From assembly GCA_964537685.1 (NCBI GenBank), contig CAZICM010000013.1, positions 64,132-105,199 on the forward strand: 41,068 nucleotides of DNA, written 5' to 3'. The position numbers and the translations under genes are program-made. This document shows positions 18,718 to 28,093 of this stretch, in pieces. Below the pieces are notes generated by a model that was not told the DNA's origin, searched no databases, and worked only from the letters and a program-made list of their open reading frames with translations. The DNA comes from an uncultured Polyangiaceae bacterium (GTDB lineage Bacteria; Myxococcota_A; Polyangia; Polyangiales; Polyangiaceae). Within the stretch, counting starts at the first letter, position 1. Every line of letters starts with the position of its first letter.

Positions 18718-21069
18718 TCAACGGAATGGCTTCACATTCGCCCGTGCCCAAGCAAGCACACGGCGGCGCTCACGCCCTGACAACCCATACACATCGAAAA
18801 TCAGCGCATCCAAGGCATCCTGCTCGGACTCCAAAATGCCCAAATTCCTCTTCGACAGCGCCAAACAAAACATTTTACATTTCAATTGAATATGTTTTTC
18901 AATCGGCCTGGGCGCGGGAATAGAGCGCAGATGCCCAATCTTCACCTGAGGCATTCCCTGCCGCGCATCCCGGAACGCATGATAATGAAACCAGCGCAAC
19001 AAGCTTGAATTCAGCAGCGAAAGCAGCACATACCAAGGCCACGCCCGATGTTCAAAACACGCCAGAAGCGAATTGCGGAAGGCATGGCCATCGTTTTTCG
19101 CCGCAATGGGATAACGCGCCGTCTGGCGCACCACAATCGGCACATTCCTATATTCAGACGCCGGACGCATTTTCGTTCCCAGCGCCTTGCGGTTTACAAA
19201 TAACCTCGGTTTCCCCAGGAAAAACGCCGAAACATCGGCCCCTTCCCGGATAGGCGCGTGAAAAGGCGCACCCGCTTCATCCATTTCAATCAAATATTTT
19301 CTCAATTCAGGCGTCGTCTGAAACCCGCGCTCTCCAAAAATCTCCGCGGGCAGCGGACTCATCGCCGACAGCCGCTCGAGCAAGGCCAAATCTTCCGTCG
19401 ACACATCGTTGCGATCGAGCGGCCAAATATCGCCCGGCGTTCGCATAAAGCCTTTTGTTTTGCGGTCTTTGCGCGCCTGCTTTGGTTGAACGAAGAGCCC
19501 GCGGCGCACCGACACAAGCGCCATGCACGGCTGAAACACACCTTCAAAAGCACCGTCCCCAAAATCGGTCAAAGGCTCAACAATATCGCACAGCGCATCG
19601 TGAGCTCTTCTCACCGGCTCATAACCTTTTAAATCGGCGACCGACGTAGGCAGCACCAAACCCAGGCGCCCGCCCTCCACCAGAAGCGCCGCCGCCACAT
19701 ACACAAACGCTCCATGCGTCGTCCGATACCCTCCAAATGCCGGATTCTCCGCGCATAAAAAGGCATGCAGCGAAGACTCCATACGCTGAACAGCCCTGCC
19801 CGCATGCGCAATCCAGGGAGGATTGCCGATTACCACATCAAAACCATTTCGCTTATCCGAGAAAATGAGCGGAAATAAATCGCTCCATCCAAAAGGCTGC
19901 CCGGAAAAATCAATTGTTTTCTTTATCGTTTTCTTTATTGCTTTTTGCGGGCGGGCCGCTGCCCTCTTTGGGCTCCGCGCGGGAACTTTTCCAAGCAATG
20001 AGTTTGCCACACGAATGTGTTTGAATACCTTCGTATTGGGAAATCCCAAACGGACTGTTTCCATCCACAAAGCCATGCGGCAGAGCTCCACGGCCATTGG
20101 ATTGATATCCACACCGTAAATACAGCGGCCCGCGACATCCGAAAACGCTTGAGCCTTCATGGCGCGGGAAGGCTTCTTGGGCGCCGCCCTCGCGCCCGCG
20201 AGCTCCACAGCGATACGGCGGGCCGCCTCCGACAGAAAAAACCCGGATCCGCACGAAGGATCGCACACCCGCAATTGCAACAAAGCCCGCTCCGCACCGG
20301 GCGCTCGCATGGCCTTCTCAAGCTGCGGCGAAAGCGCCTCATCCAGCACCCGCGCAATCACCTCGGGCGGCGTGTAATAACTCCCCGTTCCCCTCCGCTC
20401 ATGCTCGCCCAAAGAGCGCACATCGAAGCGAAGATTCATTAAATCGTCGAGATCGATGGAAGGATGCAATTCGAGCAGGCATTCATAGGCTTCAGCCAGC
20501 TCATCCAAGCGGATATTTAAAATATTCAGATAGCGCGGCCCGGCTTTACCCTTCTCCCAAAACAAATACCGGAACACACAAAACAGCGTTTCATTCGGAA
20601 GCGAGCACGAAAACAAAAGCCTATCGTCGACGGCCTCTTCAAAAAGAGCACCCAGCGCGGCAATGCCCAATTTGTCCGACCCTTGCCGGCACAATTGCAT
20701 TGCATCACAAAAAGACTGCCAAATATTTTTTTGAGATTGAACCTTTATAATTCCGCCCAGCCGTATAAATCGAAAAATACCTTTATCTCTAGCGTAACGC
20801 GCGCGCAAAAGCCGGGGAGTGTCCGCATTGAACAGACCGCCGGAACACTCGATGATTGCCATGAAAACAATACGATAGACAAGACAGAGCAATTTCTTAT
20901 AAAAAGCCGGCCCGCTCAGCCGCCGGTATTTGAGCGCCCTGCGCAGCGCTTCATTGGATGGATGGCGCAGAAAGCCTCCCGCAAGCGCAAAGACCGACAT
21001 TTCAAGGCGCACGCGAAGCTCGGTGGACTGCTCGGCGAAGGCGGGAAGCGCGGCCGTTTTAGAGGGCAC
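18718..21069 (-). CDS. Gamma-class N6-adenine DNA methyltransferase with a roughly 230-aa N-terminal extra domain and a TaqI-like C-terminal target-recognition domain. This is a possible Type IIG (MmeI-like) RM enzyme or an orphan MTase.
   Basis: Motif I is VCDPSCGSGFFL. Motif IV is VVIGNPPW (NPPW). YGVDINPMAVELCRMAL lies between them. The single polypeptide is 783 aa and no separate REase gene is adjacent. An in-frame 12-bp tandem duplication (KKTIKKTI) occurs at about 19917-19941. Confidence 0.75.
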   Translation of the reverse strand: MPSKTAALPAFAEQSTELRVRLEMSVFALAGGFLRHPSNEALRRALKYRRLSGPAFYKKLLCLVYRIVFMAIIECSGGLFNADTPRLLRARYARDKGIFRFIRLGGIIKVQSQKNIWQSFCDAMQLCRQGSDKLGIAALGALFEEAVDDRLLFSCSLPNETLFCVFRYLFWEKGKAGPRYLNILNIRLDELAEAYECLLELHPSIDLDDLMNLRFDVRSLGEHERRGTGSYYTPPEVIARVLDEALSPQLEKAMRAPGAERALLQLRVCDPSCGSGFFLSEAARRIAVELAGARAAPKKPSRAMKAQAFSDVAGRCIYGVDINPMAVELCRMALWMETVRLGFPNTKVFKHIRVANSLLGKVPARSPKRAAARPQKAIKKTIKKTIDFSGQPFGWSDLFPLIFSDKRNGFDVVIGNPPWIAHAGRAVQRMESSLHAFLCAENPAFGGYRTTHGAFVYVAAALLVEGGRLGLVLPTSVADLKGYEPVRRAHDALCDIVEPLTDFGDGAFEGVFQPCMALVSVRRGLFVQPKQARKDRKTKGFMRTPGDIWPLDRNDVSTEDLALLERLSAMSPLPAEIFGERGFQTTPELRKYLIEMDEAGAPFHAPIREGADVSAFFLGKPRLFVNRKALGTKMRPASEYRNVPIVVRQTARYPIAAKNDGHAFRNSLLACFEHRAWPWYVLLSLLNSSLLRWFHYHAFRDARQGMPQVKIGHLRSIPAPRPIEKHIQLKCKMFCLALSKRNLGILESEQDALDALIFDVYGLSGRERRRVLAWARANVKPFR

Positions 21070-23253: not shown

Positions 23254-23319
23254 AATCAATCGTAGAAATACTCATTCCCGGTGACAGGCGCCCTCCGAAT
23301 CGCATAAGATGCCGGCCTT

Positions 23320-23335: not shown

Positions 23336-24130
23336 ATGGGCATCTGCACCGACAAATCCACAACCTATCTCAAACAGCACGGCTACAACGTCGTCAGGCT
23401 TCCGCGCGAAGGCATCCGGCCTTTAGATTTAATCGGCCGCCAAAGGGATGCCGTGAATTATCTCGGGCGTCTCGACAAGCTTCTGACCCATCCCTCGCAC
23501 GCTCTGCCTTCGATTAAAAGCAACGCCGAGAGCGCCGAAATTCACGGTCAAACATCGAGCAAATTGCCTTTGGCCATCGGATTGAACGTATTGGACTCCA
23601 TTCTGTCCGCATTGGGAGCGGGCGCGGGCATAACAGCCAATTACAAAGGCGCGAAGACGCTTCAATTTGGATTTGGCAAGCCTTTGGTGGATACGGTGGC
23701 CCAACTCGATATTGGCCAATACTTAAAGAATGGCGAAATCGACGACGATAATTTAATCCTCAAAGAATACGTGCTCGGCAACGGCGATTTATTTATTATC
23801 ACCGAGACCATCAAGACCAATAAATTCACCGTTAGCGCCGAAGCATCGGGCGGAGGGGAATTTAAATTGGATGTGCCAGCCATTCAGCAATTGCTCAGCG
23901 CGGGCGTACAGGTGAGCGTGGACGCGAACAGCGCGGGCACCGTTAGCTATGAAGGGCCAAAGCTATTGGTCTTTGGATTTAAATGCGTTCAAATGGGCTG
24001 GACCGACGAAGGGATGCGCCTTGTCAATGTAAAGCCCGGGTCCGTTGCGATGGCGGCGGGCGATGAGGGCGCGCCGGAGATGCGGCCTTCTATCCTCGAT
24101 CCCAATGGATTGCTGGACATGGAGTTCTGA
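23336..24130 (+). CDS. Bacterial gasdermin-like pore-forming protein (bGSDM).
   Basis: The 264-aa protein starts MGICTDK, with Cys at position 4, which is the position of the palmitoylated N-terminal Cys in bGSDMs. An N-terminal HGYNVVRLPREGIRPLDLIG segment is present. Gly/Ala-rich amphipathic beta segments follow (LAIGLNVLDSILSALGAGAGITANYKGAKTLQFGFGKP; EGPKLLVFGFKCVQMGW). A short C-terminal tail is present. A caspase-like (CHAT) protease gene starts 5 nt after its stop. A local A/T-richer composition suggests horizontal acquisition. Confidence 0.75.
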   Translation: MGICTDKSTTYLKQHGYNVVRLPREGIRPLDLIGRQRDAVNYLGRLDKLLTHPSHALPSIKSNAESAEIHGQTSSKLPLAIGLNVLDSILSALGAGAGITANYKGAKTLQFGFGKPLVDTVAQLDIGQYLKNGEIDDDNLILKEYVLGNGDLFIITETIKTNKFTVSAEASGGGEFKLDVPAIQQLLSAGVQVSVDANSAGTVSYEGPKLLVFGFKCVQMGWTDEGMRLVNVKPGSVAMAAGDEGAPEMRPSILDPNGLLDMEF

Positions 24131-24135
24131 CCGTT

Positions 24136-26457
24136 ATGCTGCTCAATGCGGAGGAATTGGGCGAGCTCATGAGCCTGGCCGTCCAGAGCGGCCTGCTTTA
24201 CCATCGGGATTTGCTCCTTGAAGGCTTTCCAAAAATCATCCGGGATGAATTGCCCCTTAAAAAAGATCCTATTGAACAACTGCGAAGTGATCTGGAAATA
24301 TTAAATCGAATTCCAGCCACCGAACCGGAATTACCCGCCGCACCGCTTGAGATTTGGATAAGAAACGCTATCGGGTTTTTGCAGGGGGCGCCCGAGCAAG
24401 CGCTTCTCTACACATTGAGCCAACACCTTATTGAAAGGCGCCCGCATAAAACCAAATCGGCACCACCTCCGCCGGCCTACATGCCAACCAAAGGATTCTA
24501 TTTTTGGGGTGGCGACGATCGATTTTTAGATACATTCGAAAGAGTTCGCTCGCTTATCGATCCCGACCGGAGCGCGGGCGACGAACCGGAGACACCGCCG
24601 AGGCGCGATACAGGCGAAATCTCGGCTCCCCAAACGCCTGAACGCTTTGTGAATATCGGGCTTTCGGCCAAGGCGGAGCCCACGCAATTTTGCCCAAAAG
24701 ATCGCTGCCTGGACCCGGCTTCGGCCTACTATTGCTGGCTTGAAATAGGCGCTCTTCTCGAGCAGGGCGATACGCATGACAAGCCGGCCAAATTCCCCGC
24801 CGAGCTCCTGCCGGACGAGGCAATGCTTACCGTCGTATTGTTTACAAATCCCAATGGATTTGAATTAAATCCCGAGGCCGACCTGGGAAAACTCCTGCTG
24901 AACAAGGATGGCACGGTCACGGTTGCACGGCGCGCCTGCACGCCTGAGGGCATGAAAGAAAGCGATCCGCTCTTGGAGCGCAGATTATTCTTTCCCATTA
25001 AAACACCTGCGAAGGAGGGCGAATATTTTCTTCGCGTGAGCATTTATTATGAGAATGCGCTTGTGCAATCGCATCAGATGCGCATGAAAATCGGCGTTAA
25101 TACCTATACGCGGCAGGCCGTGTACACCGAGACGGATTACACGCTAAGCCGAAGCCTCCGAAAAAGCGCGATGGATTTTCTTCGCGGCCATCAGTTGAGC
25201 ATTTTTATGAATGAGAGCGAAGATGGCACGCATGGATTCCGATTCTTGGGAGGCGGCGATTATCACAAAAGCGTATTCCTCAATGACGGCGAAGTTACCA
25301 ATTTGATCCAAATGCTTCGCAATACCTTGAAGAAAGCTTGCTGGGACGAGGAAGCGGATTGGACGCCTCAGCAAGATCAATCCTACCGTTATGAAAACAG
25401 CGGCGATTTTGATTTATTGCAGCGAGACCTTGTCAATATGGCTATTGCGGGACACCGCGCCTACGATATGATCGCCGATCAGCTTGGAGCCGATTTCGAA
25501 GAAATTGACAAGCTCAAGGCTCAAATGCGGAGACCGGGCCAGCTCCAATTCGCGCTGAAGCAATCGGTACGCTTGTATTTGCCCATTGCGCTGTTTTACG
25601 ACCATGCGCTCGATAGCTGGCTCGATCCCAAAGAATTCTCTCTGTGCAATGCCTTTAAAGAGGCCGCGGCGCAGCATGATCATGGCCTCGAAGCGGCGGC
25701 CTGTTTTCAGGGCGACTGCCCCAATCGCGATAACGATCGAATTGTATGCCCAGGCGGATTCTGGGGCTTTCGGCATGCGCTTGGCCTGCCTCTCACCTTG
25801 GAAGGCGAAGAACAGCACTCGCTGGACCTGGAATACCCGCTTCCCGCCGACACCCCGCCTTCGATGACGGTTTCGGTCTGCGACACGCCCGATCTGGAGC
25901 ATGTTCAATCGCATATAGAAAAAATTCAATCGTTAATTCCGGCGGGGCAGCTTGGACTGGCGAAAACCCGCGATTCGACGATTGAATTATTAAAACAGCG
26001 CTCATCGCATTTGGTCTATTTCTATTGCCACGGCGGCGTAAGCGGCACCGTCCCCTTTTTGCAGATCGGCCCTTCCAAAAGCGATCGGATTGGCCGCGAC
26101 ACGCTCCGGGAAAAGCGTATCTCGTGGAAGAAGCCGCGCTCTTTGGTATTTATCAATGGCTGCCACACCACCGATTTAGAACCCGAGCGCGCCATCGATT
26201 TGGTATCCGGATTTGTGAGGACAGCCCAGGCATCCGGCGTTATTGGCACGGAAATCACCATTTTTGAACCATTGGCCGTCAGCTTTTCCCAATGGTTTTT
26301 TCAATTCTTTCTTAAAGAACAAAAATCCGTTGGTGAGTCCATCCGGCTCGCTAGGCTTCGCGTGCTGCAGCGAGAGCTCAATCCGCTTGGATTGGTCTAT
26401 ATTCCCTTCGCGGCCTCCACGCTTAAGATTTCATCGTCCGCTTCCGCTTCGCAATAA
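24136..26457 (+). CDS. CHAT-domain (caspase-like His-Cys) protease with a roughly 550-aa N-terminal region of unknown function. Predicted activating protease for the upstream gasdermin.
   Basis: The C-terminal 230 aa carry a caspase/CHAT catalytic dyad in beta-strand-turn context: His in SHLVYFYCHGGVSG (about aa 632) and Cys in SLVFINGCHTTD (about aa 676), separated by about 44 aa. The gene is translationally coupled to the gasdermin-like gene (TGA 24128-24130, ATG 24136). The N-terminal 100 aa are predicted helical (MLLNAEELGELMSLAVQSGLLYHRDLLLEGFPKIIRDELPLKKDPIEQLRSDLEILNRIP). Confidence 0.75.
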   Translation: MLLNAEELGELMSLAVQSGLLYHRDLLLEGFPKIIRDELPLKKDPIEQLRSDLEILNRIPATEPELPAAPLEIWIRNAIGFLQGAPEQALLYTLSQHLIERRPHKTKSAPPPPAYMPTKGFYFWGGDDRFLDTFERVRSLIDPDRSAGDEPETPPRRDTGEISAPQTPERFVNIGLSAKAEPTQFCPKDRCLDPASAYYCWLEIGALLEQGDTHDKPAKFPAELLPDEAMLTVVLFTNPNGFELNPEADLGKLLLNKDGTVTVARRACTPEGMKESDPLLERRLFFPIKTPAKEGEYFLRVSIYYENALVQSHQMRMKIGVNTYTRQAVYTETDYTLSRSLRKSAMDFLRGHQLSIFMNESEDGTHGFRFLGGGDYHKSVFLNDGEVTNLIQMLRNTLKKACWDEEADWTPQQDQSYRYENSGDFDLLQRDLVNMAIAGHRAYDMIADQLGADFEEIDKLKAQMRRPGQLQFALKQSVRLYLPIALFYDHALDSWLDPKEFSLCNAFKEAAAQHDHGLEAAACFQGDCPNRDNDRIVCPGGFWGFRHALGLPLTLEGEEQHSLDLEYPLPADTPPSMTVSVCDTPDLEHVQSHIEKIQSLIPAGQLGLAKTRDSTIELLKQRSSHLVYFYCHGGVSGTVPFLQIGPSKSDRIGRDTLREKRISWKKPRSLVFINGCHTTDLEPERAIDLVSGFVRTAQASGVIGTEITIFEPLAVSFSQWFFQFFLKEQKSVGESIRLARLRVLQRELNPLGLVYIPFAASTLKISSSASASQ

Positions 26458-28093
26458 GCGCCGTCAGCTCATCCCGCGTCACGCCCAGGCGCGCCGCCGT
26501 CTTATGCGCGAGCGAGGTTTTAGCTACGCCGCCGACAAAACCATAGGTTGGCCTCTCGCTTTTATCGAGTTCTACCTGAATAAATTCTAAATGCGGCACC
26601 GGCAATTCTTCCGAAAGGTGCGCCGCAAATTGAAGCAGGTGCGTGGACACAAAGGCTTGGGCTTCCATTTCGGGAAGCAATGAAATGACCAGCCTCGCAA
26701 TCTCTTCGCCCTCGGATGGATTTGTCCCGGAGCACAGCTCATCGAGAATGACAAGCGAACAGCGATCGAGATTTTCAAACATTCGCCGGATGCGCAAGAG
26801 CTCCATGCCCAATTGCCCCTCGGGCTGGTCGGCCCGCGCTTCGTCGAGCAGCGACACAAAAAGCCCTGAAAACCTAGGCAGCCGCGCCGATCGGGCAGGC
26901 ACGAAGAGACCCGCGCCCGCAAATAAATAGGCCAGCGCAAGCGATTGAAGCAGCCTGGTTTTTCCGCCTGAGTTTGGCCCCGTCACCAATACGACCGAAT
27001 CGGCATGCGCCGTGCGTAAATCACAAGGAACGGGGATCGTTTTGCCTTCCAATAAAAGCGGATTGAATAATCCCAATATTTCAATGCCGGGACATTCAGC
27101 AGCGTTTTGATTGCCAATCTCAATGAATTCGGGGAAGCAGACCGACAGCCCCTTGGCCAATACCCCGTCGCGAAAGCTGAGGGCAGCCAAGTAAAATTCC
27201 ATGTCGCCAAGCAATTGAAAGAGCGAGACCAAAACCGCTTCCATGCCTGTGAATACATCATCGAAGAGGCGTTCGACGACTTCGCCGCCATTCATGCGAT
27301 AACCGCGGAGCATCAGCCTCAGCTTGGCCAGCCATCGCCCCAGCGGAGATGCATGAAATGGGTTGTCTTGATTCTCCCGCACGGCAACAATTTGAAAGGT
27401 GCGCAGTTCTCCATCCGAGCCCAGGCGCACGCGCAGATCGACCGTGCCCAAATGAGCTTCATGATCGAGCAGGGCATCCAATCGCTTGTAGGATGGGCTT
27501 TCTAAAACAGCCTGCCCAAATGCCCGGATGCGCGATAGGCCCGATGTGGATTCATTGAATGAATTGGCCATCAATCCAATCAATGCATGAAGTGCCCTTA
27601 AAATATCGAGGCGCCGGATCTGCGCCGTAATAAAGCGTCCCGAGCATAAGAGCGCGCGAAAACGAACGATATCGGCATAAATGCTTTCAAATTGGCCACG
27701 AAGTATATCCGAGCCGGCCAGATCGCCTAAAATAGACCGCCTGAATTCCGTCTCGGCGAGATCGCTGGGCGGTTCGGAGAGGGCGCGCAGCAAATACCTC
27801 GCGCAGGGTTCGTACGCGCGGCCATTACATCGGATGGATAGAGAATTTTTTACAAGCTGATCCAAAAATAAATCGCGCTCGAAATAGGCGCGATCCCAAT
27901 CGGTTTTTGGAAGGCGGGCGCGGCCCATCGCTTGATCGAAATTCTCGACAGAACCGCTGGTTGCAAAGGCAAAAATTAAAATCTGCCGGAGTTCCTCGGC
28001 GTCGACGCGCACCAGAGGTTTTTCGCTTAGCAGATCGGGAAAGGGCAAGGGCGAAGGGGATGTGGCCATGAAGAATGCCGGATGGACAAGCAA
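26423..28093 (-). CDS. MutS-family ATPase paralog (MutS domain III core plus domain V ABC ATPase). It lacks mismatch-binding and Smr domains.
   Basis: The Walker A motif is LVTGPNSGGKTRLLQSLAL. The Walker B/D-loop is SLVILDELCSGTNPSEGEEIA. The His-loop is FVSTHLLQFA. The C-terminal helix PTYGFVGGVAKTSLAHKTAARLGV resembles MutS. The 556-aa protein's 3' end overlaps the CHAT protease gene by 35 nt in convergent orientation. Confidence 0.75.
   Translation of the reverse strand: MLVHPAFFMATSPSPLPFPDLLSEKPLVRVDAEELRQILIFAFATSGSVENFDQAMGRARLPKTDWDRAYFERDLFLDQLVKNSLSIRCNGRAYEPCARYLLRALSEPPSDLAETEFRRSILGDLAGSDILRGQFESIYADIVRFRALLCSGRFITAQIRRLDILRALHALIGLMANSFNESTSGLSRIRAFGQAVLESPSYKRLDALLDHEAHLGTVDLRVRLGSDGELRTFQIVAVRENQDNPFHASPLGRWLAKLRLMLRGYRMNGGEVVERLFDDVFTGMEAVLVSLFQLLGDMEFYLAALSFRDGVLAKGLSVCFPEFIEIGNQNAAECPGIEILGLFNPLLLEGKTIPVPCDLRTAHADSVVLVTGPNSGGKTRLLQSLALAYLFAGAGLFVPARSARLPRFSGLFVSLLDEARADQPEGQLGMELLRIRRMFENLDRCSLVILDELCSGTNPSEGEEIARLVISLLPEMEAQAFVSTHLLQFAAHLSEELPVPHLEFIQVELDKSERPTYGFVGGVAKTSLAHKTAARLGVTRDELTALIAKRKRTMKS

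Follow-up and report, generated by a model that had tools for sequence, protein, structure and literature searches.

The stretch of DNA analysed here (the window; 41,068 nucleotides (nt) of contig CAZICM010000013.1) carries a two-gene cassette of 3.1 kb, in which the gene of a bacterial gasdermin (23336..24130) is followed by that of a 773-amino-acid (aa) protease (24136..26457, plus strand), which joins an N-terminal effector-associated domain of the EAD5 family to a caspase-fold protease domain of the CHAT type. We consider it probable, at roughly 0.6, that EAD5 serves as an adaptor that gates the CHAT protease, likely via an EAD5-bearing partner acting in trans, and that activation of the gasdermin is controlled in this way. 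An earlier note on this DNA had described the first 550 aa of the protease as one uncharacterised, non-repetitive region and as a possible novel sensing or oligomerisation module with a CARD-like beginning. Its coordinates of the open reading frame (ORF) and the peptide it quoted (aa 6-59 of the protease) were borne out; the analyses below divide the region into parts, most of which belong to a large protease family.

The Pfam model EAD5 (PF19957) matched aa 3-114 of the protease (E 1.3e-9; 38.4 bits, the cut-off being 27), with positions 2-109 of the 135-position model covered in the window protein. Close homologues matched the model down to 6e-20, and a match was obtained for all nine modules aligned, the best with an E-value of 3.8e-25. 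EAD5 is a defined effector-associated domain, i.e. small, terminal, non-enzymatic and fused to effectors (Kaur et al. 2020, 2021; PMC7159879, PMC8195603), and the module found here, about 100 aa at the extreme N-terminus followed by a tether and the protease, has this layout. In the AlphaFold models six helices lie within aa 5-100 (block-mean predicted local distance difference test (pLDDT) 78-97) and form a six-helix bundle, in which a leucine of helix 1 (L11) is invariant. The top 60 structure matches included six small helical domains, all but one of them CARDs. EAD5 is thus predicted to adopt a CARD-like death fold, a structural assignment backed by one method. Since the link to CARDs is absent at the sequence level, this assignment is a structural, model-based one, and no sequence homology to animal CARDs is detectable that would speak for common descent. 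The earlier note had predicted the first 100 aa or so to be all-helical, and the models agree with this.

The ORF directly 5' of the protease gene was identified as a bacterial gasdermin (PADLOC bGSDM, 3.8e-71; NCBIfam prok_gasdermin, 4.9e-59), as had been supposed, and between its stop codon and the ATG of the protease lie just 5 nt. The mechanically called gasdermin ORF begins at 23309; translation most likely starts further in, with the ATG at 23336, because an AAGGAG is located 9 nt 5' of this codon, a promoter-like site spans 23281-23310, and the resulting product begins with MGIC, like the homologues of four other loci (L002, L003, L005 and L010). This start places a conserved cysteine at position 4. 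The gasdermin of Vitiosangium is palmitoylated at the cysteine of position 4, and palmitoylation of Cys3/Cys4 has been reported for bacterial gasdermins (Johnson et al., 10.1101/2021.06.07.447441). At the other end of the protein a conserved C-terminal tail (P-S-I-L-D-P-x-G-L-L-D-x-E-F; PSILDPNGLLDMEF) is preceded by a variable linker rich in Ala, Gly and Glu (AAGDEGAPEMRP). The gasdermin is the presumed substrate of the protease. The two genes are adjacent and co-oriented, and their pairing recurs in L002-L005 and in L010, which makes the locus a gasdermin-protease two-gene system.

The architecture of the protease was derived from two AlphaFold models, one of the full-length protein (pLDDT 78.7, predicted template modelling score 0.71) and one of aa 1-470 with a deeper alignment (pLDDT 84.3), and from an alignment of 17 close homologues, with invariance also scored in 46 family members. 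The two models concur on the boundaries of the parts, and the alignment is poorly occupied up to about aa 170, beyond which its occupancy exceeds 0.9 as far as the C-terminus. Conservation and structure model together divide the 550 aa that had been treated as one region into four parts downstream of which the catalytic part follows (Table 1). Behind EAD5, the tether has a pLDDT below 50 over aa 102-166 in the full-length model and over 104-131 and 141-152 in the aa 1-470 model, contains 11 prolines in 66 residues, is 26% identical to that of the closest homologue and differs in length among homologues. The stretch from aa 171 to 383 is modelled as beta-sandwiches of about six and about seven strands (block-mean pLDDT mostly 91-98, lower past aa 330), with structure matches to immunoglobulin-like (Ig-like) or MG-type beta-sandwiches of GH57 amylopullulanase (7.9), complement C4 (7.7), transglutaminase-2 (7.6), HAP2 (7.6), Pycsar AGS-C (7.2) and bacterial alpha-2-macroglobulin (6.9). 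Foldseek against the PDB gave no match at E<=0.001 and weak tandem beta-sandwich matches only. Searches of PDB sequences gave no relevant match either, whether run with the whole protein or with a profile of EAD5 or of the middle region. As the earlier note had stated, a recognisable repeat sensor is lacking, with TPR, WD40, LRR and NACHT all unmatched.

From aa 469 onward an alpha/beta caspase-like fold is modelled with mixed confidence, which is low at 558-567. Its front part, aa 469-556, is the most conserved segment of the protease (73% identity to the homologue P0002) and contains four cysteines (C504, C523, C528 and C538; nt 25645-25749) followed by GFWGFRH (H547, nt 25774-25776; consensus PxGFWGxRH). 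These cysteines and the FWG, R and H residues are invariant in the 17 as well as in the 46 sequences, and no family model describes the combination of the Cys4 cluster with the PxGFWGxRH motif. Together with the EAD5 match, they contradict the previous statement that no motif was assignable in the region. The pattern suggests a candidate metal site, perhaps a structural one, that could be inserted in the front half of the CHAT domain. The predicted catalytic dyad, His632 (YFYCHGG, nt 26029-26031) and Cys676 (FINGCHT, nt 26161-26163), is invariant in both sets too. Pfam CHAT was the sole protease-family match (aa 560-746, E 1.7e-5, 24.8 bits, cut-off 24), and was obtained for 12 of the 17 and 28 of the 46 relatives. 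On the basis of this family match, the His-Cys dyad and the caspase-like alpha/beta fold of the model, the protein is a CHAT protease, and with the N-terminal module an EAD5 protein. The best structure matches of the protease were SAVED-CHAT (8tl0_A, 16.9), the gingipains RgpB (16.3) and Kgp (15.8), the CHAT protein DdvA (15.6), separases (about 15) and Csx29 (14.8). Because the alignments to DdvA, separase and Csx29 cover 327-368 residues, and because the CHAT match at residue 560 starts at model position 92, with about 90 model positions lying upstream, we infer that aa 384-556 or so are probably part of the CHAT/separase-type protease body.

An indexed search with a profile of aa 168-560 returned CHAT-type proteins only, and an exhaustive HMMER search with this profile matched the representatives of at least 1,695 clusters formed at 50% identity, 567 of them at E<=1e-30. 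Among the 150 matches listed, the profiled region ends about 200-215 aa before the C-terminus in full-length members, and the N-terminal extensions span 0 to about 1,080 aa. The N-terminal modules of the family are EAD5, EAD7, a protein kinase, a Frankia_peptide-like domain, HEAT, CARDB, a receiver domain or none recognisable. From this family-wide presence with differing N-terminal modules we conclude that aa 168-556 constitute the constant front end of a CHAT subfamily that is large and unnamed, rather than a gasdermin-specific sensor, and that EAD5 is one among many interchangeable input modules. Since the Ig-like pair is constant across differing inputs and across two different upstream partners, it is most likely a scaffold, docking or autoinhibitory platform rather than a specific sensor. 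The proposal that the whole of aa 1-550 is a novel, non-repetitive phage-sensing or oligomerisation module specific to the gasdermin protease is accordingly very improbable: the region is composite and resolves into known or family-wide parts, aa 168-556 recur in the clusters just mentioned, the EAD5-less relatives examined are not beside gasdermins and have other N-terminal modules, and some of the region seems to be CHAT/separase body.

Six EAD5-CHAT loci were available for comparison, namely the window (also recovered as L001), L002, L003/L004, L005 and L010, the last being the only one yielded by the genome-collection scan. In all six a gasdermin gene directly precedes the EAD5-CHAT gene, at a spacing of 5-33 nt. 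The loci fall into two lineages with different flanks. In the window and in L003 the cassette is located in the same chromosomal slot, between the genes of a fumarase and a MutS_V ATPase; in the Polyangiaceae loci it lies between PmbA/TldD plus a 357-aa ATPase and an aminotransferase. Between the window and L003, identity amounts to 96% for the fumarase, 79% for the MutS_V protein, 69% for the gasdermin and 55% for the protease, and within the protease to 45% for EAD5, 26% for the tether, 53% for the beta-sandwiches, 56% for the helical segment, 73% for the CHAT front and 66% for the CHAT catalytic part. As judged from these identities, the cassette diverges far faster than its flanks, as conflict genes do, which is consistent with diversifying selection.

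The earlier note had also suggested searching for the same N-terminal domain on other effectors. Such fusions do exist: a metagenome scan with the EAD5 alignment recovered three loci (L013, L014 and L015), in which EAD5 was found with PNP_UDP_1, with nSTAND1-WD40 and with Trypsin_2 (Table 1). A search of a set of 5.8 billion proteins with the EAD5 profile added one partial protein, E-values at that scale defeating a domain of 100 aa. The two L013 genes are divergent and both start with EAD5. These two EAD5 copies share 54% identity, whereas neither exceeds 45% with any further copy. In L014, on a very short contig, an open frame ends in EAD5 at its C-terminal side and the architecture is uncertain; its reading as a stand-alone EAD5 was dropped, as the frame runs about 150 aa further upstream with hydrophobic segments. 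According to the 'EAD principle', a copy of an EAD on a core NTPase and a copy on an effector couple homotypically, like death-fold domains (PMC7159879, PMC8195603). The L013 pair, with one copy on a STAND NTPase and one on a candidate effector, reproduces this layout, and the closeness of its two EAD5 copies is indirect evidence of homotypic association.

These EAD5 fusions in L013 and L015, the 'EAD principle', the requirement for CARD-like domains in the Lysobacter system and the linkage to a gasdermin are among the reasons for which we favour the role of EAD5 as an adaptor. For the Lysobacter and Pedobacter proteases, CARD-like domains are indispensable to defence, and in Lysobacter to cleavage of the gasdermin (PMC10312443). 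In the mechanism that we propose, EAD5 would be the input module of the protease, and homotypic EAD5-EAD5 contacts would bring the protease onto an oligomerising, EAD5-bearing partner. This partner would most likely be a STAND/NLR-like NTPase whose gene lies in another part of the genome and which would be of the kind of the EAD5-nSTAND1-WD40 protein of L013; as an alternative to a partner, the EAD5 modules of the protease could associate with each other. Induced proximity would then activate the caspase-like domain with its His632/Cys676 dyad, as CARDs do for caspase-9 and caspase-1, and the active protease would cleave off the conserved C-terminal inhibitory tail (PSILDPNGLLDMEF) of the gasdermin, the cut probably falling within the variable linker that precedes the tail. 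The released gasdermin would form membrane pores, and the infected cell would die.

Several observations weigh against this proposal. The sensor of a defence system usually sits in the same operon. There is no STAND/NLR gene in the window, where the neighbourhood of the cassette is largely housekeeping, or in the related loci. The EAD5 of the protease was the only one in the window, and the roughly 4-10 kb covered around each of the six gasdermin loci contained no second copy, although hidden Markov models (HMMs) of five and of nine EAD5 sequences, the latter at maximum sensitivity, were used for the search. Because neither a second EAD5 nor a STAND/NLR gene is nearby, the EAD5 partner is hypothetical. 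With respect to the fold, the CARD-like bundle comes from a model in whose alignment about six sequences cover the EAD5 region, and Kaur et al. predicted a mixed alpha+beta structure for EAD5 (PMC7159879, PMC8195603). No CARD was among the 50 Foldseek hits shown, no Pfam CARD, Death or PYD match was obtained at E<=10, PDB profiles gave no relevant match, and hhalign of EAD5 against the verified CARD of caspase-9 returned a probability of 0.17%. Finally, the Pfam score for CHAT is marginal and lies barely above its cut-off.

The lack of a second EAD5 in cis would be readily explained if the cassette were self-contained, i.e. if EAD5 or the Ig-like pair directly bound a phage or stress trigger, polymerised and activated the protease, which would make a partner needless. 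This alternative, the strongest that we see, is possible, albeit on the unlikely side. It would fit with the occurrence of strictly two genes in two lineages with differing flanks, with relatives bearing EAD7 that are also without an adjacent EAD7 partner, and with the direct sensing of lipopolysaccharide by the CARD of caspase-11 without an NLR, a precedent named by Wein et al. (PMC10312443). However, the visible partner of this EAD5 type, in L013, is a STAND-WD40 sensor, and EAD copies on effectors are scattered in genomes which also encode a core copy (Kaur et al., PMC7159879, PMC8195603). No ligand-binding feature was identified, and the constancy of the Ig-like pair across relatives with different inputs makes it unlikely to be the specific sensor. 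Rather doubtful, in our estimation, is the wider idea of a sensor-less counterpart of the non-canonical inflammasome, in which EAD5 would itself sense or self-polymerise without an NLR and would represent an unrecognised death-fold family; a related possibility of the same standing is that the core of the protease alternates between a gasdermin and a small hydrophobic protein of 129-144 aa (see below).

EAD5 could, conversely, act as an autoinhibitory or decoy module, with the protease being off until EAD5 is displaced or cleaved off at the tether. The long flexible tether would permit fold-back or removal by autoprocessing, and the linkers of caspase CARDs are known sites of autoprocessing. 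Death-fold domains can moreover regulate negatively, the PYD of NLRP1 being inhibitory, and once the C-terminal CARD-like domain is deleted from the Lysobacter NLR-like protein, that system becomes toxic (PMC10312443). Against this, a low-confidence linker of 65 residues parts EAD5 from the body in the full-length model, and the paired EAD5 genes of L013 indicate intermolecular coupling, so that we regard autoinhibition as improbable and retain the adaptor role of EAD5 as the favoured explanation.

Table 1 Parts of the cassette, its convergent neighbour, and genes of other loci referred to in the text (coordinates are those of the window or of the locus named).
Feature	Location	Coordinates	Strand	Basis and remarks
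Bacterial gasdermin, 264 aa from likely true start (MGICTDKS...)	window	23336..24130	+	PADLOC, NCBIfam, start-site features
EAD5 module, protease aa 1-101, six-helix bundle	window	24136..24438	+	Pfam, AlphaFold; predicted CARD-like death fold
Disordered Pro-rich tether, aa 102-167	window	24439..24636	+	pLDDT, homologue identity, length variation
Two tandem Ig-like beta-sandwich domains, aa 168-383 (~171-265, 283-383)	window	24637..25284	+	first part of constant core
Helical segment, aa 384-468, three long helices	window	25285..25539	+	model; block-mean pLDDT 81-96 over aa 384-465
N-terminal part of caspase-like fold, aa 469-556	window	25540..25803	+	invariant Cys cluster, GFWGFRH
Catalytic part, CHAT caspase-fold clan CD protease, aa 557-773 and stop codon	window	25804..26457	+	catalytic dyad (predicted)
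MutS domain V ATPase protein, 556 aa	window	26423-28093	-	MutS_V 1.5e-20; far under MutS1 and MutS2 cut-offs
EAD5 + PNP_UDP_1 (1.3e-16), nucleosidase-type candidate effector	L013	2352-4079	-	domain matches
EAD5 + nSTAND1 (4e-98) + WD40 (1e-81), NLR-like sensor	L013	4276 to beyond 7905	+	domain matches
EAD5 + Trypsin_2	L015	174-1313		domain match; architecture type of Lysobacter CARD protease
Small hydrophobic protein	L006	4847-5251
Small hydrophobic protein	L007 (also L008)	2394-2816
Small hydrophobic protein	L009	6824-7213
Small hydrophobic protein	L012	9465-9899

Two neighbouring ATPases were considered as the missing NTPase and rejected. The MutS_V gene and the protease gene are convergent, with an overlap of 35 nt at the 3' end of the latter; the MutS_V protein has no EAD5, is a syntenic flank in L003, like the fumarase and DUF3750, and is missing from the Polyangiaceae loci. 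The 357-aa AAA_21-like ATPase encoded upstream in L002, L005 and L010 is likewise without EAD5, and in L002 a gene on the opposite strand intervenes. A viral scan for a phage-encoded EAD5 decoy found none. Elsewhere in the window, an ORF of 836 aa (3114-5624, minus strand) resembles vault proteins (Major Vault Protein shoulder, 2.2e-30; Vault repeat; SPFH/Band 7). An Eco57I/N6 adenine methyltransferase of 783 aa with a TaqI_C specificity domain (18718-21069, minus strand) lies 2.3 kb upstream of the cassette; its best PADLOC matches were DrmMI, PglX and type IIG enzymes (6.9e-38), and no obvious nuclease or DISARM/BREX partner was present among the neighbours examined.

In four loci of EAD5-less relatives, the protease gene is located directly downstream of the gene of one conserved small hydrophobic protein (129-144 aa), in place of that of a gasdermin. 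The protein has several hydrophobic segments and, ahead of a variable tail, a conserved DWFLDGRRKK motif, and pairwise and HMM matches between these proteins ranged from E 1e-50 to 1e-79. The contig of P0013 is a fifth probable case, and L011 lacks the protein. At the N-terminus, the relatives beside it bear a kinase, EAD7 or nothing recognisable, and a hydrophobic ORF of 76-98 aa is often found just before the small protein. A relationship to gasdermins (E>0.3) or to a known family (no PADLOC or NCBIfam match) was rejected. The pairing with a CHAT protein recalls the EACC1-caspase theme of Kaur et al., where EACC1 has a single transmembrane helix and an N-terminal caspase partner (Kaur 2020, PMC7159879); the architecture differs, however, and there was no precomputed Pfam match, so that the protein was not assigned to EACC1. 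The protein is a candidate for an alternative membrane-acting partner of the protease family, or for a substrate. Several EAD5-less loci encode a second, different CHAT protein, namely TPR-CHAT in L006 (9069-11651, minus strand), CHAT-SIR2_2 in L009 (297-2750, plus strand) and a CHAT protein of 1,057 aa on the P0013 contig, which hints at multi-protease arrangements.

Among known systems, the CARD-NLR system of Lysobacter enzymogenes (Wein et al., PMC10312443) is a four-gene operon with a trypsin-like protease and an NLR-like STAND ATPase that has a CARD-like domain of its own. The window, in contrast, has two genes, a CHAT caspase-fold protease, no STAND protein nearby and an EAD5 without sequence similarity to CARDs. 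As a trypsin-like CARD protease together with a STAND ATPase in the operon defines that system, and neither a trypsin-like protease nor an NLR is present here, the cassette falls outside the CARD-NLR systems as Wein et al. describe them. In Runella zeae a gasdermin gene is likewise directly followed by that of a CHAT protease, which cuts the gasdermin after L247 and thereby removes a short C-terminal inhibitory peptide, and CHAT is the commonest type of gasdermin-adjacent protease (23 of 59; Johnson et al., 10.1101/2021.06.07.447441). Such proteases have built-in sensors or switches, Roc-COR in the case of Runella and TPR, LRR, WD40 or NACHT in other cases, whereas the protease of the window consists of EAD5, the tether and two Ig-like domains without an NTPase or repeat module in front of the protease. 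The statement in the earlier note that such proteases usually have repeat sensors was overstated, the source attributing them to some (10.1101/2021.06.07.447441).

The EAD systems of Kaur et al. usually encode a second EAD copy in cis, which L013 does and the cassette does not. EAD1, EAD6 and EAD7 were related to each other by these authors, EAD5 not being listed, and only bDLD1/EAD3 and bDLD2 were given as homologues of Death-like domains; the main texts of both papers contain no mention of gasdermin partners (PMC7159879, PMC8195603). The CHAT/separase proteins SAVED-CHAT (8tl0), Csx29/TPR-CHAT of type III-E CRISPR, DdvA and separase have as regulators SAVED, TPR, a transmembrane anti-sigma region and ARM/HEAT, respectively, where the window protein has EAD5 and tandem Ig-like domains, and their substrates are unrelated to gasdermin. 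We found no publication on EAD5-CHAT beside a gasdermin or on EAD5 as a death fold (with Wein et al. in preprint form).

In its working, the cassette may be likened to the mammalian CARD-caspases (caspase-1, -4, -5 and -11) acting on gasdermin D. Both would have an N-terminal six-helix domain of the CARD type that is joined by a flexible linker to a His/Cys protease of caspase fold, and a gasdermin that is activated by loss of a C-terminal inhibitory part. The catalytic domain of the window protein, in contrast, is of the CHAT/separase/gingipain type and not C14, two Ig-like domains and the Cys4 insert intervene, and the presumed inhibitory part of the gasdermin is a peptide of about 20-30 aa and not a domain.

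In the CARD-dependent bacterial gasdermin systems studied by experiment, trypsin-like proteases operate with an NLR-like ATPase. In the window, a predicted CARD-like adaptor is placed on a caspase-fold protease directly beside a gasdermin, which would make the cassette the closest linear parallel so far to CARD-caspase-gasdermin signalling of animals, with the sensor not encoded alongside. If EAD5 indeed has a death fold, a bacterial family defined in Pfam would join that superfamily, and the 'EAD principle', which was derived computationally, would be linked to the experimental work on CARDs. The analysis also defines a large unnamed CHAT subfamily of at least 1,695 clusters, in which a front end of two Ig-like domains, a helical segment and the Cys4 cluster is combined with interchangeable inputs. 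With two genes and 3.1 kb, the cassette is small enough to ask if a CARD-type domain alone gates a gasdermin protease.

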